Of a stretch of DNA of 64,000 nucleotides, positions 1 through 16,230 are shown one piece after another. The number at the start of each line of letters is the position of its first letter. Within the stretch, counting starts at the first letter, position 1. This DNA is from Patescibacteria group bacterium (GTDB lineage: Bacteria > Patescibacteriota > Microgenomatia > UBA1400 > PJMF01): contig JBMORP010000006.1 of the NCBI GenBank assembly GCA_049322655.1, positions 256,410 to 320,409 of the forward strand, in the 5' to 3' direction. Under the pieces are notes generated by a model, which was not told the origin of the DNA, ran no database searches, and was given only the letters and a program-made list of their open reading frames with translations. A program made the translations under genes and the position numbers.

Positions 1-48
1 CGCTACTTTTTCTAGCTGAGCCACAGCATTTTGATGAGGATCATTCAT
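1..48 (-). CDS. N-terminal fragment of an unidentified CDS (MNDPHQNAVAQLEKVA...) running off the window start
   Basis: ATG at 48..46 on the minus strand, preceded by an AAGGA-like RBS; open to coordinate 1. Only 16 aa are visible, so no product call. Confidence 0.3.
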   Translation of the reverse strand, partial: MNDPHQNAVAQLEKVA

Positions 49-76
49 AAAAATTCCTTTTTTTAAACTAATACTA

Positions 77-1147
77 TTAGTTTCTACTTTCTAGCCACCT
101 CTCGGCATCCAAAGCCGCTTCACAACCCATCCCTGCAGCAGTAATTGCTTGCTTATATCTCACATCAACCACATCACCAGCCGCAAAGACTCCTTCAACC
201 GAGGTCATGGTGGGAAATTTAATCAATTGTTTTTCATCTAAAGCCTCACTAGCTTGCTCTAAACCGGCAGCAGACAAACTTTGTCTGGTAACTAAATAAC
301 CAGCCCTATCCAAATTTAATTGTCCTTGGAAAGCTTGAGTAACTGGTTTATGACCAATCGCTAAAAATACACCATCAGCAGAATAATCTTGTTCTTTACC
401 TTTAGTCTCAATGACAACTTTTTCAACTTTGTTGTCACCTTTAATTTGCTTTAAGTTTGAATTCCACAAGACAGTCACTTTTTTATTGTTTAGAACTCTA
501 TCGGCCATGATTTTACTCGCTCGAAAAGAATCTCGGCGATGAACAACTGTCACTTTGTTAGCAAATTTAGTCAAAGCCAAAGTATCTTCCATCGCACTAT
601 CGCCACCACCAATTACAAAAACGTTTTTATCACGATAAAAAGCCGCATCACAAACTGCACAGGTACTCACCCCTCGACCAAATAATTCTTTTTCCCCAGG
701 AACACCCAACTTAATAGAAGCAGCCCCAGTACTAAGAATGACTGTTTCAGCTTCAAGATCATGAGGTGTTTGTTTTACTGCTTCAATTACGGCAACTATC
801 TCTTCCTGAGAACCATTTTTAAAAACATCAATATTTTTACCATCAGGAAGGTGAGTCCAAAGTTTAAAAGGCCGCTGAGAAAAATCAAAAGCAGTTACAT
901 GAGTATCAATAATCTCTGCTCCAAACCTTAAAGCTTGAGCTCTAAGTCCCATCATAAACTTTGGGCCCATAACACCATCTGGAAAACCAGGAAAATTTTC
1001 TAGTTCAGTGGTATACATTAACTGACCACCACTTTCAACACCTGTATAAACAACTGGCTTGAGTTGAGCTCTAGCAGCATAAATTGCTGCGGTATAACCC
1101 GCTGGACCAGAGCCAACAATGACTAACTTTTCTTTTTTCATACCCAC
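77..1147 (-). CDS. trxB: thioredoxin-disulfide reductase
   Basis: N-terminal FAD-binding GSGPAGYTAA, redox-active CAVCDA, NADPH-binding GGGDSAME, and overall TrxR architecture. Confidence 0.9.
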   Translation of the reverse strand: MGMKKEKLVIVGSGPAGYTAAIYAARAQLKPVVYTGVESGGQLMYTTELENFPGFPDGVMGPKFMMGLRAQALRFGAEIIDTHVTAFDFSQRPFKLWTHLPDGKNIDVFKNGSQEEIVAVIEAVKQTPHDLEAETVILSTGAASIKLGVPGEKELFGRGVSTCAVCDAAFYRDKNVFVIGGGDSAMEDTLALTKFANKVTVVHRRDSFRASKIMADRVLNNKKVTVLWNSNLKQIKGDNKVEKVVIETKGKEQDYSADGVFLAIGHKPVTQAFQGQLNLDRAGYLVTRQSLSAAGLEQASEALDEKQLIKFPTMTSVEGVFAAGDVVDVRYKQAITAAGMGCEAALDAERWLESRN

Positions 1148-1172
1148 CTTCCTTAAAAAGATAAACTCGCTG

Positions 1173-1517
1173 TTATTTTGCTAAAACTTCATCAATCATA
1201 GCTTTGTAGCCAGCTTCTCCAGGAAAACCAATTTGTTTGGCAACAATTTTAACTTCGTCTTCATCTTTCTTAAAAACTAAAACTGTGGGAATACTCATCA
1301 CACCATATTCTTGAGCTGTAGCTGGATTTTCATCTACATTGAGTTTGGTAATCATGATTTTATCTCCATACTCATCGGCCAATTTATCAATCACTGGAGC
1401 AGCCATTTGACATGGACCACACCACTCAGCAAAAAAATCAACAAAAACTGGCTTATCTTGTTGAAGAGCAGTCTTGAAACTTTGATCATCTAAATAAGTT
1501 GCACCTTTATTGCTCAT
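1173..1517 (-). CDS. trxA: thioredoxin
   Basis: WCGPC active site in a roughly 110-aa thioredoxin fold. Lies 25 nt upstream of trxB on the same strand. Confidence 0.9.
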   Translation of the reverse strand: MSNKGATYLDDQSFKTALQQDKPVFVDFFAEWCGPCQMAAPVIDKLADEYGDKIMITKLNVDENPATAQEYGVMSIPTVLVFKKDEDEVKIVAKQIGFPGEAGYKAMIDEVLAK

Positions 1518-1607
1518 AGTTATTATTTTCTCTATTTAAGAGAAATCCTTTCTGTAAGTTTACCTAAAAATTGGTAAAGCTACTTATTACCTATTTAAGT
1601 TTCGCTA

Positions 1608-1850
1608 TTAATAACGAAACACTTCTTTTAAAACATCGTCAAGTGTATCCCACTGTTCTCCACGAGAACATTTTTTAGCCTCAGAAGTTAATAAGTCTCT
1701 AGCGACTCTACCCAATGAACTTCTAACAGCTATAACTTGACGAACAATATCTACACAAGCACGTTCGTCTTGGTACATTCTAGCAATACCCTCAATTTGG
1801 CCGTTTATCCGGTTTAGTTGAGCGACAATGGGATCTTTTTGACTTGTCAT
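1608..1850 (-). CDS. CsoR/RcnR/CstR-family (DUF156) metal- or thiol-sensing transcriptional repressor, two-Cys type
   Basis: 80 aa with the typical helical-bundle pattern (NRINGQIEGIARM...). Cys32 and Cys61 are 29 residues apart, as in the Cys pair of CstR. The position where Cu-CsoR has His (C-4) is Glu here. Confidence 0.8.
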   Translation of the reverse strand: MTSQKDPIVAQLNRINGQIEGIARMYQDERACVDIVRQVIAVRSSLGRVARDLLTSEAKKCSRGEQWDTLDDVLKEVFRY

Positions 1851-1860
1851 ATTTCCAAAT

Positions 1861-1875
1861 ATACCCCTAGGGGGT
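1861..1875. promoter_or_regulatory. CsoR-type operator, inverted repeat TACCCC-TAG-GGGGTA
   Basis: Perfect 6-3-6 palindrome 11-25 nt upstream of the csoR-like start. Nearly identical to the Bacillus subtilis CsoR operator core TACCCTACGGGGGTA. Confidence 0.55.
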
Positions 1876-1883
1876 ATATTGTG

Positions 1884-3722
1884 TCAAGTATTAACTGAAC
1901 GTAAAATTTGTTGATAGTGAGCTATTTTTTTTAATAAGTTATTAAACTCAAGTTCCTCTTGTTCGGTTTTTTCTGCTTTTCGATCAAGTTCTTTAATTTC
2001 TGCTTGGAGTAACTTAATTGATGCTCTAGCACTTTCATTTCTTAAAATCAGCCAAGTATTTAACCACTCTACCTCAAAATCAATCTGTTCTTTTAAAGAA
2101 ATAAATTTGGGATCATAAACAACATCAAAAACTAATTGTTTTAAGTCTTCAGCCAACCCTTGAGTAGCCTTTTTAAGATCCAGCTTGTTTTTAAACTCTG
2201 CTGAGGAAAAATGCTTAATTAATTCAAACAAACCTGGAGTTTGCCAAGCAAAATCATTGATTAACTTAATCTTTTCTGAAAATTTATTACTTTCAAAAAG
2301 TAGAAAAATCAAATATCTCTCTAATGATTGCCTTCTTGATGGAAGGTTTCGCTGAGTAGAAATTGGTTCTCTTGCTGACTCTAGTGGTAAATTTTGCTTA
2401 ATTTTTTGTAAATCTTGTTTAATAAGTTCTGATTTAACTTTCAAAGTTTCTGCCAATTTTTTAATATAGAAATCCTTTTCAACTGCATGAGTTATCTCCG
2501 CAAAAACTGGACCAACCTCTTTAATAATTTCTCGCTTGCCTTCTGGCCTTTCTGGATCATTTTTTCTCAGACTAAATCTTAATAAAAATTCATAGACAGA
2601 GATACTTTGGTTCTCTAATTCTCGCCATACTTTGGGTGTAGATCTAGCCAACTCGTCAACATCCTTTGCCCCACCTTCTAATGAAGACAAGTCAATCACT
2701 CTCAACTCAATATCTGTATCACCCACTACCTCAATAGCTCTCTTGGTAGCTTTAATGCCAGCCTCATCTGCATCCAAACATAACAATATTTTTTTGGCTA
2801 TTCTAGAAATAAGTTTAACTTGTTCTTGAGTCAAAGCAGAGCCCTTAATTGCCACGATATTATTAACGTGGTTCTGTGAAGAAGAAATTACATCAAACTC
2901 ACCTTCAACAACAATCACTGCCTCTTTTTTCTTAATCTCGCTTAACAACTCTTTGTAACCAAATAACATTTTAGATTTATGGTAAAGTTTGGTTTCTGGA
3001 GTGTTAATGTACTTAGCCTCTTTGGCTACTTTATCTAATAATCTACCAGAGAAACCAACCACTCTACCCCGATGATCTTTAAGGGGAAACATTACTCTCC
3101 CTCTAAAACGATCGTAGTAACGGCCACCGCGTCCTTTAATAATTAAACCTGTTTGTTCTATTTCTTCTAAAGGAAATTTTTTCTTGTGATGCAAATACTT
3201 AACTAATCCATCCCAACTAGTCATAGAATAACCCAAATTAAATAACTGAATTGATTCTTGTGAAATAGCTCTCTCTTTAAGGTATTTTCTAGCTTGCTCA
3301 CCAATAGAATGAATGGTTAATAGGTAATGGTAGTACTCTTTAGCTAAATTCAAGATAGCTAGTAAGCGTTCTCTCAACTCATCATCATTAGTTTTTTGAA
3401 ATTCTGCTAACTGAATTCCGGCCTGGTCTGCTAAATATTTAAGAGCTTCAGCAAAACTCATCGCCTCATATTTTTGTAAAAAATCCAGAGCATCGCCAGT
3501 CTCTCCACAACCAAAACAACGATAACGTTGTAACTGTTCACTTACAAAAAAAGATGGAGTTTTTTCACTATGAAAAGGACAAGGTGCTTTATAACTGGAG
3601 CCGGATCTCTGCAACTTGATTCGTTCCCCAATTACCTGAATAATATCGGTAGCATCTTTCACCTGTTGAACTTGGGACATCTTTTGTAGTATACCGTATT
3701 TTACTGAACAAACTGCATACAA
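1884..3722 (-). CDS. dnaG: DNA primase
   Basis: CHC2 zinc finger (CPFHSEKTPSF...CFGCG), Toprim region (EGEFDV...DAD), and a C-terminal helicase-interaction-like domain. Confidence 0.9.
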   Translation of the reverse strand: MYAVCSVKYGILQKMSQVQQVKDATDIIQVIGERIKLQRSGSSYKAPCPFHSEKTPSFFVSEQLQRYRCFGCGETGDALDFLQKYEAMSFAEALKYLADQAGIQLAEFQKTNDDELRERLLAILNLAKEYYHYLLTIHSIGEQARKYLKERAISQESIQLFNLGYSMTSWDGLVKYLHHKKKFPLEEIEQTGLIIKGRGGRYYDRFRGRVMFPLKDHRGRVVGFSGRLLDKVAKEAKYINTPETKLYHKSKMLFGYKELLSEIKKKEAVIVVEGEFDVISSSQNHVNNIVAIKGSALTQEQVKLISRIAKKILLCLDADEAGIKATKRAIEVVGDTDIELRVIDLSSLEGGAKDVDELARSTPKVWRELENQSISVYEFLLRFSLRKNDPERPEGKREIIKEVGPVFAEITHAVEKDFYIKKLAETLKVKSELIKQDLQKIKQNLPLESAREPISTQRNLPSRRQSLERYLIFLLFESNKFSEKIKLINDFAWQTPGLFELIKHFSSAEFKNKLDLKKATQGLAEDLKQLVFDVVYDPKFISLKEQIDFEVEWLNTWLILRNESARASIKLLQAEIKELDRKAEKTEQEELEFNNLLKKIAHYQQILRSVNT

Positions 3723-3742
3723 ACTAATCGATAAGGAAAAAA

Positions 3743-4438
3743 ATGTCTGAAGAAAAAAATCAAGCTTGGAAAAAACTAGAACAAATCACCAAATATTTCA
3801 AAAATCATATCTATAATTTCTATAAAACTCTGAACTTTGAAAATTGGGAGTTTCTACTTATTATCATGATTGGAGCCTTCAGCTTTCTGTTCTGGGAACA
3901 CCTACAACTAAAAAAAGAATTTAATAACACCAAACAAATTGCTGATATTTTACAAAAAAAATCTGGCCTCAGAGTTTACTCCAGAGATGAGCTAGAAATT
4001 AGACAAATAGGTGATGTTTACATTCAAGCACCAAAAGATTGGACTAATGTTATCCAAGACTATTTAACTACTAATGGAGTAAGGAAACACTATATTGCCT
4101 CTTTTGGTGATGGTTTTGGTATTCCCTTTTCTAACGAGTATGCTTTCGTTGTTGGAATTGAAAGAAGGGAAGTAAAAACCAATCTAGAAACTTTTTTGGA
4201 AGAGAATGAGGTTTCTAGTGATCCAGAAAAAACTAAGACTAATTACACAAAAGTTAATGATGAGATGTTTTACATCCCCAGAGATGAAGTTGGACTTGAG
4301 TATTTTAGAAAAGTCGACGATGTAGTTCTCGTTATCTTTGTTTACGATAACGGTGACCGAGAAATTGATGACTTTGAACAAAACTTTATCAATAGTGTCG
4401 GACCAGTGGAAACCAATTCTCTCTTTGATTATAAGTAA
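3743..4438 (+). CDS. hypothetical membrane-anchored protein
   Basis: 231-aa ORF with one predicted TM helix (LLIIMIGAFSFLFW). No recognisable motif. Confidence 0.45.
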   Translation: MSEEKNQAWKKLEQITKYFKNHIYNFYKTLNFENWEFLLIIMIGAFSFLFWEHLQLKKEFNNTKQIADILQKKSGLRVYSRDELEIRQIGDVYIQAPKDWTNVIQDYLTTNGVRKHYIASFGDGFGIPFSNEYAFVVGIERREVKTNLETFLEENEVSSDPEKTKTNYTKVNDEMFYIPRDEVGLEYFRKVDDVVLVIFVYDNGDREIDDFEQNFINSVGPVETNSLFDYK

Positions 4439-4442
4439 AAAA

Positions 4443-4652
4443 TTACTCTGATGCTGGTTCAAACTCTTCTTTAAGAGCAATAAATTTGTTTTCAACCTCA
4501 TTTAGTCTAGTTTTGATTTGTTGAGTTAGTTTTTGAGCTTGTTGAAGTTTCTCTAGGCCTTCATCCAAATCAAGATCTTCATTTTGAAACCAATTATTGA
4601 TTCTTTCTAACTCCTTCATCGCTTCGTTCATCGAAAGTTTTTTAGTTGTCAT
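4443..4652 (-). CDS. xseB: exodeoxyribonuclease VII small subunit
   Basis: 69-aa coiled-coil protein whose start overlaps the xseA stop by 11 nt. Resembles the XseB family. Confidence 0.8.
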   Translation of the reverse strand: MTTKKLSMNEAMKELERINNWFQNEDLDLDEGLEKLQQAQKLTQQIKTRLNEVENKFIALKEEFEPASE

Positions 4653-5856
4653 GTTTTCCTTTCACAACGGTAGCTCCAAACTGGCCATCAGCCACCGTAA
4701 TGGTTAAATCTTGATCTACTAATATTTGTTCAACTGATTTAATAATTTTCCCTTGGTTATTTTTTACCAAACTATAACCTTGCTTTAATTTTAGCTGAGG
4801 ATCGTTAGCCATTAATTGTTTCTCTAAAAGACTCAATTTATCCTTAAAATAAAAAATGTTTTTTTTACCATTACTAAAAATTGATTGAGAAAAATAATCA
4901 ACTCTAGTAAAAAAATACTCAAGTTTCGAAAAAAATTTATTTGTGATTTGGCCCCAGTTATAATTTAAATACTGATCTGCTTGTTTAATTAGTTTTTCCA
5001 TTGCTTGAGTCAGATGTTGAGAAAAATAATCAATTTTTTGTTCAGCTTCTCGCCAATGTTCAGAGAGAATTCTACCAGCATCGGTGGGCGTAGAGGCCCT
5101 GACATCTGCTACTAAATCAGTAATTGAGACATCCCTCTCATGCCCCACCGCTGATAAAACTGGAATTTTTGAGGCAAAAACTGCTTGGGCAACTTCTTCA
5201 GAATTAAAAGCTTGCAAGCTTTCCAAACTACCACCTCCTCTAGTCAAAACCAAAACATCCAAACCACCCTCAACAATGTTGGGATGTTCATTAAACCAGC
5301 GAATACCAGCTACAATTGAATCAATCGCATAAATTCCCTCAACCTTAATATCCCGATGAAAAACTTGAAAACCAAAATTACCCAAGTGTTTTTTTAAATC
5401 ACGAAGTGCATCACCAGTTGCAGAAGTTAGTAAACCAATTTTAATTGGAAATTCTGATAAGGTTCTTTTTCTATCTTCAGTAAAATAGCCCTTGTCAGCC
5501 AATTTTTGCTTCAAAACCTCAAATGCTTTTTGTAGAGCTCCTTCTCCCACTGGCACAATATGTTCAACAACAAAAGTTAATCTACCAGATGGTTTGTAAA
5601 TATTAGTCTTACCAAAAACTTGGACTTCAAGCCCTTCTTCCAAAACAAATGGCAACTGTTGTAACCTAAACTGCCATAAAGCACAAGATAAAACAGCCTG
5701 TTCCTTATTTTTTCCATCACTCAAAGAAAAATAAGCATGCTTTCTAAAACTCACTGAGGTTATTTCTCCTTGAATAACCATCTCAATGTTAGCCAACTGC
5801 TCGTTGAGTAAATCTAAATAATCATTAACAGAATAAACTTTAGGTGTGAGTTTCAC
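4642..5856 (-). CDS. xseA: exodeoxyribonuclease VII large subunit
   Basis: 404 aa with an N-terminal OB-fold region and a central catalytic region (GGGSLE). Paired with xseB. Confidence 0.88.
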   Translation of the reverse strand: MKLTPKVYSVNDYLDLLNEQLANIEMVIQGEITSVSFRKHAYFSLSDGKNKEQAVLSCALWQFRLQQLPFVLEEGLEVQVFGKTNIYKPSGRLTFVVEHIVPVGEGALQKAFEVLKQKLADKGYFTEDRKRTLSEFPIKIGLLTSATGDALRDLKKHLGNFGFQVFHRDIKVEGIYAIDSIVAGIRWFNEHPNIVEGGLDVLVLTRGGGSLESLQAFNSEEVAQAVFASKIPVLSAVGHERDVSITDLVADVRASTPTDAGRILSEHWREAEQKIDYFSQHLTQAMEKLIKQADQYLNYNWGQITNKFFSKLEYFFTRVDYFSQSIFSNGKKNIFYFKDKLSLLEKQLMANDPQLKLKQGYSLVKNNQGKIIKSVEQILVDQDLTITVADGQFGATVVKGKHDN

Positions 5857-6289
5857 TAGTAATCACCATTTTTTTATTAACTAAAAACCAAACAATCCCA
5901 GCTACCAACATGCTGGCAACGGTACCCCAAATAATATCAACAATTACTACTTGTTGTGACCAATTTTTCAAGGTTGCCCAATTACTTAAATCATAGGTAG
6001 CATAAGCCCCAAAACCATACAAGGCTGTATTGAGTAGTAACTCTCTTAAAGATTTGGCTTTAGCAAAACCCCAAAACCATAACATTAGAGGATGAAGGGC
6101 ATAAAATATCAACCCAGGAAATAATAAAAAGTCATCTCTCAATAAATCCCCCAATTCTGCAAAATAAAAATTTTTGGCCACCACACCCAGCCAGATTCCA
6201 TCTATTAAGCCAAAAACAGCCAATAGTAACAAATAAGTAATAATAAAGTTGTGCAAGCTATTAATCTTCATAACCCTATTGTAAACCAA
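5840..6289 (-). CDS. small integral membrane protein (DUF2177-like)
   Basis: 149 aa with four predicted TM helices. Overlaps the xseA start by 17 nt. Confidence 0.45.
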   Translation of the reverse strand: MVYNRVMKINSLHNFIITYLLLLAVFGLIDGIWLGVVAKNFYFAELGDLLRDDFLLFPGLIFYALHPLMLWFWGFAKAKSLRELLLNTALYGFGAYATYDLSNWATLKNWSQQVVIVDIIWGTVASMLVAGIVWFLVNKKMVITSETHT

Positions 6290-6317
6290 GCTAGCAAATC
6301 TCCAACTAACTATTTTT

Positions 6318-8735
6318 TTACCTTAGTTGAGGTTGTAAATGATAGTAAGGTGGAGAATTTTGGTAGCGCTTAATCGCCAAAGAAATAATCTCTTCCAAGA
6401 AGTCACCATAATCCATCCCTGTTAGTTTGGCCACTGAAGGCAGACAATCTGGTTCGTTGATTGAAGGATTAGGATTAAGCTCCAACACGTGAGGATTACC
6501 CTGTTCATCTAGTTTTATTTCCACTCTGCCATAATCATGACAGTCAAGGATAGAGTAAGTATCCATGGCCATTTCTGTAATTAAAGAAATCAATTTTTTA
6601 CTTACTCCTTTAGGTGGTCTCTCCTCTGTAATAAAGTTTTTAAAATCACTATGGTTACCAAACTTAGAATCGAAAGAATAAATATTCCACATTCCTTTTG
6701 GCATTTTATTAAATTGGGTTCTAGATAGAGGCAGGACTCTCAATTCATCACCATTGCCAATAATAGAAACATCATACTCATCTCCTGGTAAATATTCTTC
6801 TATCAAAGCTGGGGATCTTAATTCTTCTAGAACATATTTAATTTGACGTTTCAATTCTTGTTGATTTCTTACGACTGAATCTTGGTTAATCCCAATTGAG
6901 TTATCAGTAGTAGCTGGTTTCACGATTAAAGGAAAAACTAAATCATCTCTAATTTCGTCTTGCAAAGTAAAAGCATAATCCCACTTAGCCGTCGGAATTT
7001 GGTGATAAGTGAGTAGTTTTTTTACTTTAATTTTGTCAATCGCCAAACTCAAAGTAAATGGATTAGAACCGGTATATGGAATTTGATAAGCATCAAAAAA
7101 CGAAGCTACATGAGGCTCTAACAAGCTAGAGCCGTTAATTCTCTCAGCCACATTAAATATCAAATCAATTTTTTGTGACTGCATCATGTTAGAGGCAGTT
7201 TTTAAATCGTTAAAGTCAATAAATGAAGTTTTATAACCTCTTGTTTCCAAGGTGTTTCGAATTTTATTGCCTACTGAAGTCAACTCTGCTTCTATTGCAC
7301 CATCAGCTCCAGAAAAAGTATTGCAAGCAATTGCCAGATGAAGTTTTCTTTGCTCTGAAAGTTTAACTCGTCTAATTTTTTCGATTCTAGCTTGACCAGC
7401 CATAATTCTTTGATCAAACTTAGCCACAGAAAAACGATTAGCTCTCTTGGTTTTCCCTACAGCAGAAACCTCAGAGAAAGGAATAATTTCATAATTAATT
7501 TTTTCTAAAACTTTTTCCAGATTTTCCCTAGAATCATTAGGATTTTCTCCTTTAGTAGTAATCCAACCCAAAAATTCATAAGCAGCCGGAGGAACAAAAA
7601 CAGTATCTCCAACTTCTTTATAGAACTCAAACTCATCTACTTGGTCTTTAGCCGAAAATTTTTCAGGAATATCGAGACTTGAAATTACTCCAGAATTTTC
7701 TGGAATAAAAGAGGTTCCAGTTAAATAAACCGCTGGTTCTTCTGGCTTATCAATTCTTGGAAAATACTCTCCCAACGCAATCTTGACTGCATACTCAATT
7801 AAGTCAACTTTCCAAGCTTGTTTGGAAAAAGAATAAACTTCATCACCACCCATTCTTAGATTAACTTCAATAGGAACTGGACCAGTCGAAGTTTGCTTAG
7901 CTTCAAAATGAATACAACCATTGGTAATCCCCAAATGTTCCAAAACTGATTCTGCCATATCGACCAACTCTTTTTGATCTTCTTCTGGTAAAGCCGAAGG
8001 AATAGCCATTCCACTTTCCATAAAATATGGTTCTTCAGTTTTATAGTTATCAGTAATTGACCAATATTTAATTTTTCCATTCTGCAGTAAGATATCGATG
8101 TCAACTTCATCTCCATCAATATATTCTTCGATCATCACTTCCAAACCATCAGTTAAAGCTGATTCAACTTGAGTGTTAATATTTCTTTTCAAAAACTCAT
8201 AAACTTCAAAAGCCTCTTCTTGATCTTCTGCCTTAATCACAAACGCACTACTGGAACCAAAAGTTGGCTTAAAAACAACAGGTAATTTTAAAGTTTTTAA
8301 GATCTCTTTTAACTCGTCATCTGATTTAACCAAAGAATAATTTGGAGCAGGCAAATTGTGTTTTCTACAAAACTCACGGAAAGCAAATTTATTTCTGGCT
8401 TTAGAGGCAACCTTCCAAGAAATTCCTGGTTTTTTTAAGATTTCACTTAATTTGGCGGTCAACAAGACATCATCTTCCCAAAAAGTGACTACTCCATCAA
8501 CTTGGTTTTTCTTGGCATATTCGGTGATAGCTCTAATCGTAGCATCATGATTGGTGGTATCAACCAAAATCCAGTCATCAACATAGTTCTCTGCCCAGTT
8601 TTTTTGAGCATTAACCACAACTTTTTTTAGATTGGGAATCTTGGCAATTCTTTGGAGAATAAAACGTTTTTTAAGTGAACCAGTATTGACAATAAGGAGA
8701 GTTTTTTGATTTTTTAATGTTGATTTTTCTTGCAT
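6318..8735 (-). CDS. tandem ATP-grasp ligase: N-terminal carboxylate-amine/L-amino-acid-ligase-like domain fused to a C-terminal D-Ala-D-Ala-ligase-like domain
   Basis: One continuous 805-aa ORF. Residues roughly 1-330 carry a pre-ATP-grasp domain plus an ATP-grasp (LPVVFKP..GSSSAFV..MIEEYIDGDEVDID). Residues roughly 480-800 are Ddl-like (LVFPLIVKPATTDNSIGI...LIEEYLPGDEYDVSIIGNG...LELNPNPS). Confidence 0.75.
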   Translation of the reverse strand: MQEKSTLKNQKTLLIVNTGSLKKRFILQRIAKIPNLKKVVVNAQKNWAENYVDDWILVDTTNHDATIRAITEYAKKNQVDGVVTFWEDDVLLTAKLSEILKKPGISWKVASKARNKFAFREFCRKHNLPAPNYSLVKSDDELKEILKTLKLPVVFKPTFGSSSAFVIKAEDQEEAFEVYEFLKRNINTQVESALTDGLEVMIEEYIDGDEVDIDILLQNGKIKYWSITDNYKTEEPYFMESGMAIPSALPEEDQKELVDMAESVLEHLGITNGCIHFEAKQTSTGPVPIEVNLRMGGDEVYSFSKQAWKVDLIEYAVKIALGEYFPRIDKPEEPAVYLTGTSFIPENSGVISSLDIPEKFSAKDQVDEFEFYKEVGDTVFVPPAAYEFLGWITTKGENPNDSRENLEKVLEKINYEIIPFSEVSAVGKTKRANRFSVAKFDQRIMAGQARIEKIRRVKLSEQRKLHLAIACNTFSGADGAIEAELTSVGNKIRNTLETRGYKTSFIDFNDLKTASNMMQSQKIDLIFNVAERINGSSLLEPHVASFFDAYQIPYTGSNPFTLSLAIDKIKVKKLLTYHQIPTAKWDYAFTLQDEIRDDLVFPLIVKPATTDNSIGINQDSVVRNQQELKRQIKYVLEELRSPALIEEYLPGDEYDVSIIGNGDELRVLPLSRTQFNKMPKGMWNIYSFDSKFGNHSDFKNFITEERPPKGVSKKLISLITEMAMDTYSILDCHDYGRVEIKLDEQGNPHVLELNPNPSINEPDCLPSVAKLTGMDYGDFLEEIISLAIKRYQNSPPYYHLQPQLR

Positions 8736-8813
8736 CGATGGGCTTTACCTCAATGCCCACACAGTTACTAATGAGTTATTATTGTATTTAAAGTTTTTAG
8801 AAAATAAATAGAC

Positions 8814-8845
8814 AAAAACCCCTGGCAAAAAGCCAGGGGTTTTTT
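8814..8845. terminator. bidirectional rho-independent terminator (CCCCTGGC-AAAAA-GCCAGGGG flanked by A and T runs)
   Basis: GC-rich 8-bp stem with a T-run. Lies immediately downstream of the minus-strand RRM gene. Confidence 0.6.
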
Positions 8846-8869
8846 AGTTTCAATGATTAGCTAATTTAA

Positions 8870-9259
8870 TTAGCGATCTCTTCTAGATCTATCAAAACCA
8901 CCTGATCTGCCACCGAAACCACCACGACGGTCCCCACCACGGAAACCACCTCTGTCGCCACGATCTTCTCTAGGCTTTGGAGGTTGAGCGATCTTAATAA
9001 ACAACTTACGACCTTGAACATCCTGGTCATTAAGCTGTTCCATAGCTTTGGCTGCATCTTCTGCTGAAGCGAACTTAACAAAGGCGAAACCTTTGGAACG
9101 ACCTGTTCTGAAGTCTGTAATTAATTTACATTCCTCAACTTGGCCATATTGACCAAACATATCGCTAAGCTCTTCTTCTGTCAAAGAATATACAAGATTG
9201 CCAACGTAAAGTTTGCTTGGATCCTGTGCTTGATTAGTACTATCTTGAGAGGTAAACAT
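8870..9259 (-). CDS. RRM-domain RNA-binding protein with C-terminal RGG/Gly-Arg-rich tail
   Basis: RNP2-like LYVGNL and RNP1-like KGFAFVKF motifs. C-terminal tail RGDRGGFRGGDRRGGFGGRSGGF. Confidence 0.85.
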   Translation of the reverse strand: MFTSQDSTNQAQDPSKLYVGNLVYSLTEEELSDMFGQYGQVEECKLITDFRTGRSKGFAFVKFASAEDAAKAMEQLNDQDVQGRKLFIKIAQPPKPREDRGDRGGFRGGDRRGGFGGRSGGFDRSRRDR

Positions 9260-9419
9260 ATTGTCCTCTTTTTTGAGTCACTGTAGCTGACTTAATCCTA
9301 CAGACTCTTTCAAATAAAACCGGACAAAATGCTTAGTGTCTTTTAAAAATCTAAGAACTGCCGTTCAGTCAGAAACACCATTATAACCTATAATTATAAA
9401 TTAGCTACTAGAAAAACAT

Positions 9420-9905
9420 TTAGAGAATTCTTTCCAACTCTAAACCAATTTCTGAAAAACCATTTCTTTTATAAAAACTGATTGCTTTTTTATTTTTCCA
9501 ATAGGCAGCTACGTAAAGTTTTTTGATTTTTTTAACTTTGGCACATTTGGTTGCTTGATTAATTAATAACTGACCAATTCCTTTGGATCGATATTCTGGA
9601 TGAACTCCAATATTCTCTATTTCTAAATAAAGACTATGACGATAACCGAAATCTTTTTCAGCTAAAGCGATATAGCCAACTACTAATTCTTTAATCTTGG
9701 CTAAGTAACATACCCCATAGCTACCAGCTGCCAATTTTTTATAATAAGTAACTCCTTTTTTGGAAAAAGGCCAATTTAAATCAATGTCACTGTCATGGGG
9801 TGCATCATTTAAAAATACAAAGTTATTTAACTCCTGAATTTTTGACCAATCATTTTCTTTGGCCAAAACAATTGACAAATTATTTTTTATTGAGTTTATA
9901 ATCAT
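9420..9905 (-). CDS. GNAT-family N-acetyltransferase
   Basis: 161 aa with the acetyl-CoA-binding motif (RSKGIGQLLIN) typical of GNAT motif A. Confidence 0.75.
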   Translation of the reverse strand: MIINSIKNNLSIVLAKENDWSKIQELNNFVFLNDAPHDSDIDLNWPFSKKGVTYYKKLAAGSYGVCYLAKIKELVVGYIALAEKDFGYRHSLYLEIENIGVHPEYRSKGIGQLLINQATKCAKVKKIKKLYVAAYWKNKKAISFYKRNGFSEIGLELERIL

Positions 9906-9936
9906 GATTCTTAATATAAATATATCTCTTTAAAAT

Positions 9937-11124
9937 ATGAAAAACATCTACCAGGAATCACTTACTTACCACAAACAACACATTGGTAAACTAAAAACTG
10001 ACAGTATAGTCGGTAAATTAACCGACAAACAAAACTTATCTTTAGCTTATACTCCTGGAGTAGCAGAGCCCTGCCGAGTTATTGCCAAAGACAAAAAACT
10101 AGCCTATGACTATACCCTCAAAGGTAGAACCGTTGCTGTCATCTCAGATGGCTCTGCTGTTTTGGGCTTAGGAAACATTGGCGCAGAAGCTGCCTTACCA
10201 GTAATGGAAGGCAAGGCTTTACTAATCAAACAATTTGGTGAAGTTGATGCTTTTCCATTGGTAATTAACACCCAAGACCCAAGAGAAATCATTAGGTTTG
10301 TTAAACAAGTCGCTCCTACTTTCGCTGGTATCAATCTTGAAGATATTGCAGCTCCAGCTTGTTTCCAGGTTGAAGAATCACTCCAAGATATCGGGATTCC
10401 AGTTTTTCATGACGACCAGCATGGAACAGCCATTGTGGTAAGAGCAGCCCTACTCAATGCTGCTAAAGTAGTTAACAAACCATATGAATCATTGAAAGTG
10501 GGTATTATCGGGGCTGGCTCGGCTGGTTTGGCCATTGCCAGAATGATCTTGGGACTAAACTGTAACTCTGACTCTTGTTCACAAGTTAAAGCTGCCAAAC
10601 CAGTTGCAGATGTAATCGTTTTTGACCGTCTAGGAGCTTTAGTTGTAGGAAGAAACAAACAAAACATCTATAAACAAGCTGTCGCTGGTTTGTCTAATAA
10701 AGAAAAAAGGGCTGGTTCACCAGAACAAGCTCTTAAAGGTTTTGATGTAGTGATTGGTGTTTCTGGTCCTGGATCAATTTCAACCACAACTATTAAAAAT
10801 ATGAATGATAAACCAATAGTTTTTGCTTTGGCCAATCCAACTCCAGAGATAATGCCAGCAGAAGCGTTAAAGGCTGGCGCTTTTATTATCGCAACAGGCA
10901 GAAGTGATTTTGCTAATCAAATTAATAATGTCTTAGCTTTCCCTGGAATATTTAAAGCTGTTGTTCAAGGTAAACTTACCAAGATTACTTACGAAATGAA
11001 ACAAGCCGCTTCTGATGAAATTGCCAAACTGATAAAAAATCCAAGTGCAGACCAAATTATTCCAAGTGTCTTCACCGAAAAACTTGCAGAAAAAGTGGCA
11101 ACTGCAGTACTAAGCCAAGCTTAA
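9937..11124 (+). CDS. NAD(P)-dependent malic enzyme (short form, no PTA domain)
   Basis: YTPGVAEPC motif, GxGxxG NAD-binding (GAGSAG), and the ALANPTPE motif. Confidence 0.9.
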   Translation: MKNIYQESLTYHKQHIGKLKTDSIVGKLTDKQNLSLAYTPGVAEPCRVIAKDKKLAYDYTLKGRTVAVISDGSAVLGLGNIGAEAALPVMEGKALLIKQFGEVDAFPLVINTQDPREIIRFVKQVAPTFAGINLEDIAAPACFQVEESLQDIGIPVFHDDQHGTAIVVRAALLNAAKVVNKPYESLKVGIIGAGSAGLAIARMILGLNCNSDSCSQVKAAKPVADVIVFDRLGALVVGRNKQNIYKQAVAGLSNKEKRAGSPEQALKGFDVVIGVSGPGSISTTTIKNMNDKPIVFALANPTPEIMPAEALKAGAFIIATGRSDFANQINNVLAFPGIFKAVVQGKLTKITYEMKQAASDEIAKLIKNPSADQIIPSVFTEKLAEKVATAVLSQA

Positions 11125-11130
11125 AAACAA

Positions 11131-11760
11131 TTAGGTACCAAAATAACGATCTCCATAGTCACCTAGACCTGGAACAATGTATTTTTTATTATTCAATTGC
11201 TCATCAACCGCAGCCACAAAAATCTCTAAATCCAGTCTGGGAAATTCTTTTTTCAAACGATCAATGCCTTCTGGAGCAGCCACTACACTTACGATTCTAA
11301 TTGCTTTTGGTTTCTCTTTAATAACCTTATTAATCAAATGAGCAATTGAGCCACCTGTGGCTAACATCGGATCGGTAATAATCACGACTGAATTAGAAGT
11401 TATTTTGGGCAACTTCCAATAATATTCTCTAGCAACAGCTGTTTCTTCATTTCTTTCCATTCCAACAAAACCAACCTTAATCCTAGGTAAAAGTTTCATG
11501 GCACCAAATAACATTGCTATTCCAGACCTAAGCACCGGAATAATAATAATTTCATCATTGATTTTGGCAACATTAATTTTTGCTAATGGTGTAGAAATTT
11601 GTTCTTTTCTAAAAGTCAAACCAGCTACAGCTTCAGCAAACAAGAAACTACAAATTCGATCAGAATACTCTCTGAATTTTTCTAAAGAAGTTCGTTGATC
11701 TCTTAAATGGCTAAGTGAGTCTACTACAAACGGATGTTCTACCAAATGAAGTTTTTTCAT
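11131..11760 (-). CDS. upp: uracil phosphoribosyltransferase
   Basis: 209 aa with PRPP-binding motif (VIITDPMLATGGS) and the C-terminal YIVPGLGDAGDR-like motif (YIVPGLGDYGDRYFGT). Confidence 0.9.
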   Translation of the reverse strand: MKKLHLVEHPFVVDSLSHLRDQRTSLEKFREYSDRICSFLFAEAVAGLTFRKEQISTPLAKINVAKINDEIIIIPVLRSGIAMLFGAMKLLPRIKVGFVGMERNEETAVAREYYWKLPKITSNSVVIITDPMLATGGSIAHLINKVIKEKPKAIRIVSVVAAPEGIDRLKKEFPRLDLEIFVAAVDEQLNNKKYIVPGLGDYGDRYFGT

Positions 11761-11763
11761 TAA

Positions 11764-13794
11764 TTATTCTCCTTTTACTTTTTCAAGCATACCTAGTTTT
11801 TCCAAACCGACCAGTAACAAAAAAGCATCAAATAAAAGATTGCTTTCTTCTTTATTGGCTGTTGGATATGCTAAATAGTCACTGTTACTTTCCTGAGGAA
11901 ACAAAATCACTCCCTGCCCAGGATCTGCTCCTGAACTAACATTCCCTTTACCCATGGTATCAACATTACCTGCCCACCAACCAGGAGCTACTAAAACTGG
12001 GTATTCAGTTTCATCGTTAAATGGATCATGAAACATCTGCGTACCAGCATTCTGCATATGCCCACCAACCACAATACCTGGTTTGTCATGCATATAAAGA
12101 TCATAATTTCTTTTCAAACCAAAGGTCGGCTTGGAAAACGAACCATGATTACCAAGTTTATCTAAAACCGCCAAAGTATAAGGTAAAGCAGCTTCTGGCC
12201 CAACTGCCAACTCAATTGTAGATAAATGGTGAATGAGTGGAATATCAGCGTGACGAGCTAAGTAACTTCCTGGAGCAATTGGATCATCTCCATTTTTCCA
12301 GTTTTCATCCCTTAAATTAGCATCCAATAATAATGCCAAGCCCTTATCCTCTGATCTTGAAATAAATCTTGCTGTCTTATCTAAAACTTCTCTGCGATTG
12401 GCTAGTTTTCCAACCGTACTATCAATCAAGTTTCTTAAATAGATAACCACAGCGTGAGGATTGTTAATCACAAAATCACGTTGAAATTTATTCGCTCTAT
12501 TAAAACCATCTGTTTGTTCGTTGCTACCAAGCCTAACATTAGAAATAAGTTGTAATAAAATTGGTAATTCTGTTTCAATGTTAAATTTGAGGTGAGAATA
12601 AACGGGCTCTCTCTTCAAGTCATCACCGTTATGACCTTTTTCTTCAAGTCTCTTCAAGGCTTTTTTATTGGGTAGACTTTCCATTTCTTCAGGTGTTTCG
12701 GCTGATGAAAAAACATCCCACTCAATAGTTGGTTCAGTTCCAAACTCAGCCAAAACTAACTCTCTCAGCTCGGCAGTCATGCCTTGCTTTTCAGTACTGT
12801 TTAATAAACCCAAACCTTTCTGAGCTAAATCTGCATGTCTCAAAGTTGGTAATGGAGTATGAACTACTTCTTTTGAACGTTTTTTATATTTACCTACTGG
12901 TCTAGTCATCAGGACACTAGTCATTCCTTTACCAGTTGTATAAGGTCTACCCAATCTCACTCCGAACTGATCAACTGGTAAACTCTTATTAACTGATTTA
13001 ATTGTTCCAGAAGAAACCATATAAATCGGGAAAGATGAACCAGCATGATGTTCTTTGCCCACAGCTAACTGATGAATGTGAGCAGAAGCTGCTCCCTCTG
13101 GTCTATTAGCTTCAGATTTTTTAAGTAATTCTTCTCTATTTCCATGCAAAGCATCATATTTGCTTTTGCTGGTGGGATTATGCCTTGTTTCTAAAACTGA
13201 CTCCTGACCATCAGCAAATATAAAAGTCACTTGACCACCATTCAAAATAGTGTCAACATTACAAGCTTCAGCCAATATAGCCCAGGGATCAATCGTAGTA
13301 GACTCATGAGCCCAACCAGGATGGCCCCAATAATGACTAACCATACCAATCACTTTGCCTGCATCAGCTAGTGGCCTTAAAATTTCATCACGAAAATAAT
13401 TAAGTTGTTCCTGAAGGTGCATATTTAAACCAGTCATATTAGTGGTTAAATATTTACTCTTAACACCCTCGATTTCATCTCCCAAAAAAACAATTTTAAC
13501 ATTACTAGTATCAAAAACGATTGGTTCCCCAGCCTCATCATAGCCAACAATAATCTCATCATCTTCCAACAAAAAATCGCGAAGTTTTTTTAGCTCTTCA
13601 TAATCAGTCGCGGCATGACCAATATGTAAATCTCCAATTAAAAGTACTAACAATGGTTCATCTCCTTCAACCCGATACTCCAGATCCATCGTGGGCTGAA
13701 TATCCATAATTAGTTGTTGTTGGAGCTCAATTAATTCTCTTCTTTTTTCATAATGAGTTTTTCTCTTTTGTTCTTTTTCTGCTGCCAATACCAT
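11764..13794 (-). CDS. large hypothetical protein with N-terminal calcineurin-like metallophosphoesterase motifs
   Basis: GDLHIGH and FLGDEIEG resemble metallophosphatase motifs I and II. The remaining roughly 450 aa have no recognisable family. Start lies 3 nt past the upp stop. Confidence 0.5.
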   Translation of the reverse strand: MVLAAEKEQKRKTHYEKRRELIELQQQLIMDIQPTMDLEYRVEGDEPLLVLLIGDLHIGHAATDYEELKKLRDFLLEDDEIIVGYDEAGEPIVFDTSNVKIVFLGDEIEGVKSKYLTTNMTGLNMHLQEQLNYFRDEILRPLADAGKVIGMVSHYWGHPGWAHESTTIDPWAILAEACNVDTILNGGQVTFIFADGQESVLETRHNPTSKSKYDALHGNREELLKKSEANRPEGAASAHIHQLAVGKEHHAGSSFPIYMVSSGTIKSVNKSLPVDQFGVRLGRPYTTGKGMTSVLMTRPVGKYKKRSKEVVHTPLPTLRHADLAQKGLGLLNSTEKQGMTAELRELVLAEFGTEPTIEWDVFSSAETPEEMESLPNKKALKRLEEKGHNGDDLKREPVYSHLKFNIETELPILLQLISNVRLGSNEQTDGFNRANKFQRDFVINNPHAVVIYLRNLIDSTVGKLANRREVLDKTARFISRSEDKGLALLLDANLRDENWKNGDDPIAPGSYLARHADIPLIHHLSTIELAVGPEAALPYTLAVLDKLGNHGSFSKPTFGLKRNYDLYMHDKPGIVVGGHMQNAGTQMFHDPFNDETEYPVLVAPGWWAGNVDTMGKGNVSSGADPGQGVILFPQESNSDYLAYPTANKEESNLLFDAFLLLVGLEKLGMLEKVKGE

Positions 13795-13825
13795 CAGCGA
13801 ATCCTTTCTAAATTAATTTTTTGCC

Positions 13826-13851
13826 AAAAAAAATCCGCCTAATAGGCGGAA
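13826..13851 (-). terminator. rho-independent terminator (TCCGCCT-AATA-GGCGGA with an 8-nt T-run on the minus strand)
   Basis: Hairpin plus T-run downstream of the minus-strand gene 13963..15063. Confidence 0.5.
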
Positions 13852-13962
13852 GTAACACTTAAAAAATTTTTCTGGTCAAAATAAATAAAAACATAACCAG
13901 GGTTTGAGTATATAGATACTAATGTACTTTTTGCAAGCAGCTAAAAAACTTAAATTATCAAG

Positions 13963-15063
13963 CTAAAATTTTTTATTAAAAACAACTGTTAAAAATATTT
14001 GGGAGATTTTAAAAATATCTTTTTCTTTTAGATGAGGACCTAGTGGCAAATAAATAACTTTTTGTCTTTTAGTCCAACCAAAATTATCTAATTCAAATCG
14101 AACCATCAAACCATTTGATCTCAACTTGTTTAAAATTTCTACAGCATCATCAAGAAATAAACCAACAGGAAAAGCTCTCAGTTTTCCATAATCTCTTTGA
14201 GCAAAATTAATTCTAAAAAATTGTTTAGACTGCCAAAGTGGTTCTAATAGCTTTTGGTAAAGTTCAACTTGGTTGACCTTGGTAACAAAAATATGTTGAT
14301 GGTTAATTTTAAAACTTAGATTTTTAAAAAAATTAAAACCGCTACCAGCCAGCTGACTATCTCCAATATGGTCGTAGCCAACCAGCATTGTCAGTTCAGT
14401 CAACTTGTTCCACCACTGCTGCCATTTTTGAAAAGGTAAAACTAAAACCATTAATAAACAACATTGAAATAAAATCCACCACCATAGAACTTTTAACCTA
14501 TAAATTAATGTCTGATTAATAGGAGTTGGTTTTAATGCTGATAATAAACTCTTTGGACCATAGAGATTGCTACCTTGAAGGGGAACTACTTTCCTCAAAC
14601 TATCAATTATTACATGACGCTCAGTAATTAAAGAAATTTTATTTGAATCAATAACACGATGGACTGAGTCTTCAATTAACAAACTATTTTTAGGTAAAAC
14701 ATCAAGCCATTTTTCTGCCTTATTCAAAAGTTTATTTGTAATACCAACTGCGTGAAAAATTACCACTAAATCTGGTTGGTATTTTTTTAGATATTGTTTA
14801 AAAATTTTTACCGAAGTTTGAAAACCTCGATCAACAGGATAAGTTTTAACAATTAAACCATGAGCGCTCATGTTTTTTACTACATCATCACAATAAAAAT
14901 CAGGCACTAAAATTATTGAACCGGCTTGACAACCAAAATATTTAAGTAAATCCCAAAGAGCATCTTCCCATGAAAGATAAAAAAAATGAGCCAAATTAAC
15001 TGGTGGAAAAGTGGTTTGGTTAGTTAGGTAATACCACCAACCAACTGGTTGAATTGGAGCCAT
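13963..15063 (-). CDS. hypothetical protein; weak resemblance to fold-type-I PLP (DegT-like) aminotransferase core
   Basis: The segment SWEDALWDLL..GSIILVPDFYCDD and then LLIEDSVHRV...DSLRKVVPLQG loosely follow the DegT-family pattern including a candidate Lys. The call is tentative. Confidence 0.35.
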   Translation of the reverse strand: MAPIQPVGWWYYLTNQTTFPPVNLAHFFYLSWEDALWDLLKYFGCQAGSIILVPDFYCDDVVKNMSAHGLIVKTYPVDRGFQTSVKIFKQYLKKYQPDLVVIFHAVGITNKLLNKAEKWLDVLPKNSLLIEDSVHRVIDSNKISLITERHVIIDSLRKVVPLQGSNLYGPKSLLSALKPTPINQTLIYRLKVLWWWILFQCCLLMVLVLPFQKWQQWWNKLTELTMLVGYDHIGDSQLAGSGFNFFKNLSFKINHQHIFVTKVNQVELYQKLLEPLWQSKQFFRINFAQRDYGKLRAFPVGLFLDDAVEILNKLRSNGLMVRFELDNFGWTKRQKVIYLPLGPHLKEKDIFKISQIFLTVVFNKKF

Positions 15064-15084
15064 AAATCTTAAATCTACTAAAAA

Positions 15085-15738
15085 TTAACCTTTTCTAATA
15101 ACCACTCCATAGTGGCCACCATAACCAACATTACACAAGTCACCACCATCTGTTAGTTGCTTTAAAGTAGCATTAATTCCTTTGATTGAATTTAAAGTTT
15201 TGACTATTTGGTTTAAATCAATCCCCTGATATTTAAATGAACCAGAAAGCAAAGCCAACCCACCAGCGTTCAATTTACTGACTAGTAATAGTAAATTTTC
15301 ATAACCCAACTGGTCTGGTAAGTCTGGAATTCGACAAAAAGTAAGAGCATCATAACTCAAATCAGTAAATTGTAAAATTCTCCAAATAGAATCCTGGAGC
15401 GAAACAACTCTACCAAGAGCTATTTCTTGTTCTCCCTCTTCATATAAGATTTGATGGTTAATTTCTTCATCAAGAACCTTAAATCTTGGATAATAGTTCT
15501 CATCACATAACACTAATTTATCTACACCTGGATAAAGGTGCCTATATTTAGATCCTGGAGAACAAATAAAAAATCTTTCTGGAAACATTCCACCCACTCC
15601 AGCCGTCAAAACTGTTCCTCTAAAATCAGTTGTTTTTAAACCAATGTTTTCATAAACATGCCCAAATTGAGCAATATACATTTCTGTATGACTCAAACTA
15701 TCTGCGCTACTATTTGACCAAGTTTCTCTCATTTTCAT
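15085..15738 (-). CDS. hypothetical protein (possible nucleotide-binding or methyltransferase-like Gly-rich loop TAGVGGMF)
   Basis: ORF only; no confident motif. Confidence 0.3.
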   Translation of the reverse strand: MKMRETWSNSSADSLSHTEMYIAQFGHVYENIGLKTTDFRGTVLTAGVGGMFPERFFICSPGSKYRHLYPGVDKLVLCDENYYPRFKVLDEEINHQILYEEGEQEIALGRVVSLQDSIWRILQFTDLSYDALTFCRIPDLPDQLGYENLLLLVSKLNAGGLALLSGSFKYQGIDLNQIVKTLNSIKGINATLKQLTDGGDLCNVGYGGHYGVVIRKG

Positions 15739-15756
15739 TAATTCTAAAAAATATCT

Positions 15757-16149: not shown

Positions 16150-16230
16150 CTAAAGGATATTATAAGTGATAGATTGAAAATTTTCTTGTATTAGAGTTAG
16201 AGTCAATTTAGAAACAAAACAGCACTATAA

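Follow-up and report, generated by a model that had tools for sequence, protein, structure and literature searches.

A conserved fusion of an L-amino-acid-ligase-type and a Ddl-fold ATP-grasp module in Patescibacteria, with a possible role in short-peptide assembly

The double ATP-grasp gene

The window analysed here is a stretch of 64,000 nucleotides from a Patescibacteria group bacterium (assembly GCA_049322655.1, contig JBMORP010000006.1, positions 256,410 to 320,409 of the forward strand). Its minus strand encodes a protein of 805 residues in which two complete ATP-grasp modules follow each other, an N-terminal one of the L-amino-acid ligase (LAL) type and a C-terminal one with the fold of D-alanine-D-alanine ligases (Ddl) (Table 1). 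In the open reading frame (ORF) listing of the window the gene is uninterrupted from its ATG start codon, and a GAGGT sequence is located 11 nt 5' of this ATG; the GC content is about 35%. An earlier note, made from the sequence alone, had recognized a single protein with two ATP-grasp modules, and on this point the ORF, Pfam, NCBIfam and fold comparisons now agree. As to orientation the note needs a correction: the gene is on the minus strand, and the plus-strand frame over the same positions is full of stop codons.

Table 1. Features of the fusion gene, its protein product and other genes of the window (aa, residues of the 805-residue protein; nt positions are those of the window).
Feature	Residues	Position (nt)	Strand	Evidence or remark
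Double ATP-grasp fusion, 805 aa		6318..8735	minus	ORF list, translation, full-length homologues of ~800 aa, 91 loci
N module, LAL-type ATP-grasp (LAL-like region aa ~10-420)	1-420	7476..8735	minus	Pfam, 3VOT match, Foldseek, conservation
ATPgrasp_N	39-103	8427-8621	minus	Pfam
ATP-grasp_4	150-298	7842-8288	minus	Pfam E 1e-28, 100.4 bits vs cut-off 27
LAL_C2	343-416	7488-7709	minus	Pfam E 6.5e-11, 42.8 bits vs cut-off 29.4
Linker, low-confidence loop followed by helix	421-465	7341..7475	minus	Conservation, pLDDT
C module, Ddl-fold ATP-grasp of a distinct subfamily	466-793	6357..7340	minus	Pfam, NCBIfam, PDB alignments, DdlB profile, Foldseek
Dala_Dala_lig_C	584-784	6384-6986	minus	Pfam E 8.5e-36, 123.8 bits vs cut-off 24
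C-terminal tail (consensus PPYYHLQ at aa 795-801, nt 6333-6353) and stop codon		6318..6356	minus	Conservation
Gene with RNA recognition motif (RRM) and RGG-rich tail		8870-9259	minus	Upstream of the fusion gene
Intrinsic-terminator-like hairpin after the RRM gene		8814..8844	minus	13-bp stem, 7 G-C pairs, T run
Sigma-70-like promoter, weak match 5' of the ligase gene		8801..8828	minus	9/12 positions match
DUF2177 membrane-protein gene, downstream neighbour		5840..6289	minus	28 nt after the ligase gene
xseA, next after the DUF2177 gene		4642-5856
Stand-alone ATP-grasp, 353 aa		45422-46483	minus	NCBIfam: cyanophycin synthetase G domain 253 bits, GshF C-terminal 225, N-acetylglutaminylglutamine synthetase 144

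Occurrence of the fusion

A search of 5.8 billion proteins yielded at least 120 full-length homologues that are about 800 residues long, have the same domain set and are 54–85% identical, and the named hosts among the listed full-length homologues are Pacebacteria, Komeilibacteria, Peregrinibacteria and 'Patescibacteria group'. The homologous fusions that the earlier note had suggested looking for in the Candidate Phyla Radiation (CPR, Patescibacteria) are thus widespread. They carry no other label than 'ATP-grasp domain-containing protein' or, at JGI, 'D-alanine-D-alanine ligase'. In an exhaustive HMMER search the full-length form falls into about a dozen 50%-identity clusters, and a version from Bdellovibrionales has the same architecture at 29% identity. 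At the genomic level, a scan of genome contigs with the single sequence gave only four true relatives, and an alignment-based metagenome scan added further loci. The fusion is present at 91 loci (67 non-redundant at 90% identity) from independent metagenome assemblies, with identities mostly of 51–63% and two close relatives at 85–86%, and it is kept across Pacebacteria, Komeilibacteria, Peregrinibacteria and Wirthbacteria. Since these assemblies are independent, a frameshift or mis-assembly joining two separate genes, a caveat of the earlier note, is excluded.

The single modules belong to known kinds, and tandem ATP-grasp proteins as such are already known, e.g. carbamoyl-phosphate synthetase. 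A literature search yielded no description of a LAL plus Ddl-fold fusion, of its remodelled pocket, of its conservation in CPR bacteria or of its recurrent partners (see below), nor of the Ddl-like subfamily in CPR bacteria or DPANN archaea. Other uncharacterized tandem ATP-grasp fusions also occur in metagenomes, i.e. double Ddl-like proteins of 640–730 residues (P0190, P0204, P0218 and P0243) and a double LAL-like protein of 817 residues (P0258), and LAL modules resembling the N module are also embedded in proteins of 1000–5900 residues.

The closest public contig, CAYSQA010000003.1 (locus L003), is 96% identical at the nucleotide level to positions 1-16191 of the window, i.e. over 16.2 kb. 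Its label reads 'uncultured Pseudomonadales', and all relatives of its genes are from CPR bacteria (Pacebacteria-like), so this taxonomic label is probably wrong.

The LAL-type N module

Domain analysis and structure prediction were among the checks proposed for each half, and for the N-terminal half they agree on the LAL-type ATP-grasp with pre-ATP-grasp domain that had been anticipated. Pfam finds a complete LAL-type module preceding a complete Ddl-type module, and the N half displays the three-domain architecture of the LAL family, including the LAL-specific C-terminal domain 2. Among sequences of solved structures it matches the L-amino-acid ligase BL00235 (3VOT; E 1e-22 to 3e-22), and in a Foldseek comparison of an AlphaFold model it superposes on the same structure with template modelling (TM) scores of 0.85–0.87. 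The model was built on an alignment of 51 sequences that are 54–85% identical (mean column identity 65%), to which all residue counts given below refer. The hallmarks of the ATP-grasp superfamily, namely the lysine residues, the Glu-Glu pair of the adenine hinge and the Mg-binding and catalytic E...E-x-N-x-R residues, are all present in the N half: K116, K156, E203, E278, N292, R294, G296 and G297 are invariant, and E204 and E290 are each kept in 50 of 51 sequences.

With characterized LALs (BL00235, BacD/YwfE, RizA) the N half therefore shares, besides architecture and fold, the E-x-N-x-R-x-G-G motif, but the sequence identity is only about 20% and none of these enzymes is joined to a second ligase as it is here. 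LALs typically make alpha-dipeptides out of unprotected L-amino acids, ATP being split into ADP and Pi. The position of Trp332 in BacD, a residue that limits the size of the N-terminal substrate, is occupied by Asp298 in the fusion (43 of 51 sequences).

The Ddl-fold C module

The C-terminal half carries a second complete ATP-grasp catalytic set. The NCBIfam Ddl models align with residues 488-788, many Ddl enzymes are retrieved from the sequences of solved structures (E about 2e-19), and the Foldseek superposition on Ddl structures gives TM scores of 0.79–0.86. The module is further characterized by the signature motifs CER.N..S.LEPH, DNSIGIT and NPNPSI..DC. Invariant residues are D567, K568, K606, S613, E646, E647, K691, R737, E752 and N754, with E739 kept in 49 sequences, and the ATP/Mg-binding and catalytic residues of Ddl corresponding to K97, K144, E180, K215, R255, E270 and N272 are retained. 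As the catalytic residues of both modules are (nearly) invariant across the alignment, both must be under selection for activity, and both are apparently active ATP-grasp enzymes.

The residues that handle D-alanine have fared differently. Ddl was compared with the C half through alignments to solved Ddl sequences and a profile alignment to Escherichia coli DdlB, the sequence used agreeing with the alignment to Yersinia Ddl. In the numbering of E. coli DdlB (structure 2DLN), the site of the first D-Ala is formed by the triad Glu15-Ser150-Tyr216, in which Glu15 binds the donor D-Ala by its free amino group. The second D-Ala is bound by its carboxylate through Ser281 and Leu282, close to Gly276. 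Ser150 is replaced by Asn612 (48 of 51), Gly276 by Ser758 (49), Ser281 by Asp763 (42) and Leu282 by Cys764 (47), and the position of Tyr216 is variable (Trp in 25 sequences, Phe in 19 and Tyr in 6). The N-terminal subdomain of the C half gave no profile alignment to DdlB residues 1-73; in a manual alignment Glu15 is probably kept as E482, within an E-x-E motif. The aspartate at the Ser281 position would imply a different acceptor, perhaps one presenting an amine or hydroxyl group. Together with Asp298 in the N module, Asp763 also provides a weak hint of basic or amine substrates.

The model scores point in the same direction, as every listed Ddl, Van and equivalog model stays far below its own cut-off for the C half (e.g. 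PRK01372 with 194.5 bits versus 243, and TIGR01205 with 156.5 versus 245.65). Hence the description of this half as unmistakably D-Ala-D-Ala-ligase-like is correct for the fold but not for the function: judged by its sequence, it does not belong to the canonical Ddl enzymes. A family of stand-alone proteins, each about 350 residues long, shares its signature motifs (the last in the form NPNP.I..DC) and is 34–42% identical to it, and the closest of these proteins are common in DPANN archaea, Woesearchaeota among them.

These observations bear on the possibility that the C module is the housekeeping D-Ala-D-Ala ligase of murein synthesis, fused to a LAL with a cell-wall role such as the formation of a stem-peptide dipeptide. 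True Ddl enzymes are, after all, the best matches of the C half in both sequence and fold, and the JGI name says the same. Moreover, the Fem-like, MurL-like, LysA-like and enolase-type epimerase families encountered near the fusion (see below) all have murein-peptide relatives, and no separate canonical Ddl was found in the window or in any of the loci (about 14 kb examined per genome). Nevertheless, we regard a housekeeping function as unlikely in view of the low Ddl scores and of the family-wide changes in the residues holding D-Ala, Asp763 in particular arguing against a carboxylate at the Ser281 position. The nearest stand-alone relatives are, in addition, common in DPANN archaea, which are not known to possess murein, and in none of the 91 loci does the fusion gene lie in a dcw or mur cluster that would link it to murein.

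Overall structure, linker and tail

The AlphaFold model has a mean predicted local distance difference test (pLDDT) value of 86.6 and a predicted TM score (pTM) of 0.57, and hence the individual modules are well defined and their mutual arrangement is not. The linker between them contains the motif S424-x-x-G427-K-T429-x-R431 (nt 7443-7466), which is invariant in spite of a pLDDT below 50 at residues 424-427. Stand-alone proteins resembling the N module stop before this motif. At the other end of the protein, H799 and L800 of the tail are invariant, and the pLDDT is low at residues 800-805.

Identity between the two halves is no more than about 28%, over a stretch of about 108 residues. A recent internal duplication was ruled out on these grounds; the protein is an old fusion of two different ATP-grasp lineages.

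Partner genes at other loci

All ORFs of the 91 loci were clustered, and a gene was called a partner when it lay directly downstream of the fusion, in the same direction and at less than 150 nt. Such a partner gene was found in 21 of the 64 non-redundant loci that were informative for the downstream position. In 13 of the 64 it encodes a protein of about 300 residues with a duplicated Gcn5-related N-acetyltransferase domain (dupli-GNAT), recognized by Pfam as Acetyltransf_6 plus FemAB_like or, in locus L040, as LPG_synthase_C; searched against PDB sequences, the profile of the Fem-like GNAT family gave only a spurious match to SidK. A third ATP-grasp protein (about 440 residues) follows the fusion in seven loci, and in five (L004, L054, L056, L059 and L061) it is in turn followed by a pyridoxal-phosphate (PLP) dependent decarboxylase that is nearest to LysA, albeit under the family cut-off.

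The remaining family, with proteins of about 460 residues, is directly downstream in one of the 64 loci and adjoins the fusion in several more. MurL is its sole NCBIfam match, found for four of five members with a best E-value of 7e-8, far below the cut-off. These MurL-like proteins bear SFGKDS and C-x-x-C-x-K-C motifs, one copy has a weak QueC/PP-loop match, and against PDB sequences the family profile retrieved only TtuA-type PP-loop proteins (E 0.13).

The richest cluster is that of L040 (6971-16394), where the fusion, an LPG_synthase_C-like GNAT gene, a MurL-like gene, an enolase-superfamily (MR_MLE_C) gene, a DegT-like gene, an ATP-grasp gene and a second MurL-like gene all lie on one strand. 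An extra paralogue of the C module is encoded 4 nt upstream of the fusion in L038. In the Wirthbacteria locus L004 (308-7750), an OtsA-OtsB fusion, a trehalose phosphatase, TreT and an iron-containing alcohol dehydrogenase are encoded directly upstream, so that the fusion, the ATP-grasp and the PLP decarboxylase genes lie directly downstream of trehalose-synthesis genes. This single locus provides a hint of an osmolyte role.

Stand-alone versions of each half have neighbours of the same kinds. In L094 a Fem-like GNAT gene begins 6 nt after an N-like LAL gene (42% identity), in L100 a MurL-like gene (E 8e-154 with the profile of its family) begins 10 nt after another such LAL gene (44% identity), and in L099 from Peregrinibacteria (6001-9932) three LAL-like genes (434, 416 and 447 residues) lie in tandem on one strand. 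In Woesearchaeota/DPANN loci L095 and L097 (7001-10113), one or two LPG_synthase_C genes come after a stand-alone C-like gene; they are 35% identical to the gene following the fusion in the CPR locus L040 (E 1e-60 to 1e-65). The LAL-type module thus travels with Fem-like GNATs and MurL-like epimerases, and the Ddl-type module, in bacteria and archaea alike, with GNATs resembling the C-terminal domain of MprF. Such a pair of Ddl-like and MprF-C-like genes is present in DPANN archaea although these are not known to possess murein. Split N-like and C-like genes side by side, as expected for a Rosetta-stone coupling, were not found among the loci; P0139 is without a C-like neighbour, and the gene after P0144 encodes a Fem-like GNAT.

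It could be argued from these stand-alone forms, which sometimes occur without the other half nearby and each of which has its own preferred partner families, that the two modules are independent enzymes, each making its own dipeptide or amide without a shared product. The uncertain geometry between the modules would also fit such independence. We consider this rather unlikely, since the fusion has been stable over deep divergence (about 51–63% identity across CPR classes and 29% in Bdellovibrionales), the invariance of the linker motif and of the C-terminal tail suggests selection for joint working, and the clusters that add ligases and epimerases resemble a single pathway.

Neighbouring genes in the window

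The RRM-RGG gene and a GNAT gene had been placed after the ligase gene; since the latter is on the minus strand, both are in fact upstream of it. The putative terminator at 8844-8814 is strong and would isolate the ligase gene from both, for which reason they are not expected to be co-transcribed with it. RRM homologues (cluster c9) also neighbour the fusion in L001-L003, which are close relatives, and, on the opposite strand, in the distant loci L067, L068 and L071. As functional partners, the RRM-RGG and GNAT genes were rejected because of the intervening terminator and their recurrence in few lineages only. The promoter match upstream of the ligase start is tentative, as such matches are no commoner in this region than in shuffled sequence. 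On the downstream side, the DUF2177 and xseA genes are probably co-transcribed with the ligase gene. Among the 91 loci the DUF2177 neighbour, like xseA, recurs only in the closest relatives (L001-L003 for DUF2177), which indicates lineage synteny rather than a conserved partnership.

The RRM gene would be of more interest if the fusion protein modified a protein or a ribosomal peptide, as do RimK, tubulin-tyrosine ligase or the graspetide cyclases. Many ATP-grasp enzymes act in this way, and weak Pfam matches to RimK were obtained, but both halves are most closely related to small-molecule ligases and the RRM gene lies behind a terminator and is not a general neighbour. Furthermore, no small ORF (20-69 residues) within 700 nt of the fusion, as a candidate graspetide precursor, is conserved beyond single lineages, and the recurring ones look like alternative reading frames of adjacent genes. 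A role in protein or peptide modification is accordingly very unlikely.

A cyanophycin-like polymer had also been named as a possible product. Two genes upstream of the fusion in L006, L007 and L082 a Peptidase_S51 protein is encoded (8492-9130; cyanophycinase/dipeptidase E family), and the separate ATP-grasp protein of 353 residues elsewhere in the window resembles the G domain of cyanophycin synthetase, although all three of its NCBIfam scores (Table 1) are far below the cut-offs. The gene of the latter adjoins a two-component system (43669-45365). The S51 neighbour is limited to one lineage, however, and neither a Mur-ligase-type M domain nor a CphA N domain was matched in the fusion among the Pfam and NCBIfam results examined. 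Epimerases, a decarboxylase and Fem-like transferases would, moreover, suit a defined short peptide and not a polymer. With no Mur-type M domain, a polymerase for a cyanophycin-like or other poly-amino-acid storage polymer is extremely improbable.

Proposed function

We propose that the fusion protein is a bifunctional enzyme forming two successive amide bonds in a short peptide, possibly one with D-residues, independently of a non-ribosomal peptide synthetase (NRPS). This is a reading of sequence data towards which we lean, albeit slightly. Two successive ATP-dependent amide-bond formations would be the most economical explanation of the protein. The earlier suggestion of two successive peptide-bond formations is borne out as far as the two complete modules and their retained catalytic residues are concerned, but that the modules act in sequence and towards a shared product is inferred, as are the step order and the kind of substrates.

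The attack of an amine on an acyl-phosphate is established chemistry for LALs and Ddl, and the intact residues suggest that each module would follow this standard ATP-grasp route. In the N module, a carboxylate would be converted into its acyl-phosphate and coupled to an L-amino acid through the amino group of the latter, so that a dipeptide or an aminoacylated small molecule would be formed. The C module, with its remodelled acceptor pocket, would contribute another amide bond, and in the simplest case would do so by lengthening what the N module has made. Neither ribosome nor NRPS would be needed for the resulting short peptide or peptide-amine metabolite. In some genomes the FemX/MprF-like dupli-GNAT would probably carry out an aminoacyl-tRNA-dependent addition. 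In others, tailoring may involve the third ATP-grasp protein with the LysA-like decarboxylase, or the MurL-like proteins as ATP-dependent L-to-D epimerases. Given these tailoring enzymes after the fusion, the product probably carries additional residues, including in some genomes probably D-residues. The stable fusion and its neighbouring ligases, GNATs, epimerases (ATP-dependent and enolase-type) and decarboxylase all argue for a stepwise assembly of a short peptide.

Several observations weigh against this proposal. E482, which in the manual alignment appears to take the place of Ddl Glu15, would suit a donor that is a free amino acid rather than a peptide. The substrates of the two modules could be unrelated, and the relative placement of the modules in the model is uncertain. 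Moreover, nothing informative follows the fusion in 42 of the 64 informative loci, so that the argument from gene context draws on only a minority of the genomes, and none of the partner families was found in the 64-kb window.

It is also possible, although here we are more doubtful than convinced, that these genes represent an undescribed pathway of peptide assembly, independent of ribosome and NRPS and common to CPR bacteria as ultra-small symbionts, of which the Ddl-like half and its MprF-C-like partner also occur in DPANN archaea, and the product of which is a peptide with D-residues for the cell envelope or for interaction with a host. In a speculative order of steps, the LAL-type module would add an L-residue, a MurL-like enzyme would turn the terminal residue into its D-form, and the Ddl-fold module, being derived from an enzyme for D-substrates, would extend the peptide. 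Finally, a Fem/MprF-like transferase would add a residue from aminoacyl-tRNA, or a third ATP-grasp protein with the decarboxylase would add a residue or amine.

Comparison with known systems

The closest functional analogy for two successive ligations is provided by RhiM and RhiC of rhizocticin biosynthesis, two LALs that act in turn to form a tripeptide without an NRPS (PMC13579937). These are separate proteins, both LAL-type and belonging to a phosphonate natural-product cluster, whereas here the two ligases are fused and the second one is Ddl-type. A second parallel is found in the alternative murein pathway of Xanthomonas, where MurD2 adds an L-residue and MurL then epimerizes this terminal residue to the D-form in an ATP-dependent manner (PMC5808125). 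The likeness lies in the MurL-like genes that adjoin the fusion or stand-alone N-like ligases; however, MurD2 is a Mur ligase and the fusion an ATP-grasp protein, and the resemblance to MurL is remote.

Two further enzymes are similar in layout. The large subunit of carbamoyl-phosphate synthetase also contains two ATP-grasp modules per chain and is the top Foldseek match by E-value, but the global TM score is only 0.36–0.38 with a root-mean-square deviation of about 23 Å, the chemistry differs, as do the accessory domains, which in that enzyme serve oligomerization and allosteric control, and with TIGR01369 the fusion scores 68.1 bits versus a cut-off of 1027. Like the fusion as we picture it, GshF makes a tripeptide in two ATP-dependent steps on one polypeptide, and its second module is an ATP-grasp. 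Its first module is a GshA-type ligase and not an ATP-grasp, unlike the N half of the fusion, and no GshA-type glutamate-cysteine ligase domain was matched in the fusion among the Pfam and NCBIfam results examined. From Ddl proper (DdlB, DdlA and the VanA family), the subfamily of the C half also differs by its occurrence in DPANN archaea beside MprF-C-like genes.

Significance

The genomes of CPR bacteria are very small, and most biosynthetic capacity has been lost from them. That an ATP-consuming enzyme of 800 residues is kept at more than 50% identity across their classes suggests that its product is likely to matter to them. The annotation of members of this family as 'D-alanine-D-alanine ligase' is probably wrong. 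As both catalytic types are well understood, the protein should be easy to test in vitro, and the identity of its product could reveal a new small peptide or envelope component in CPR bacteria and DPANN archaea, as well as a new route by which D-residues enter peptides without racemases or NRPS.

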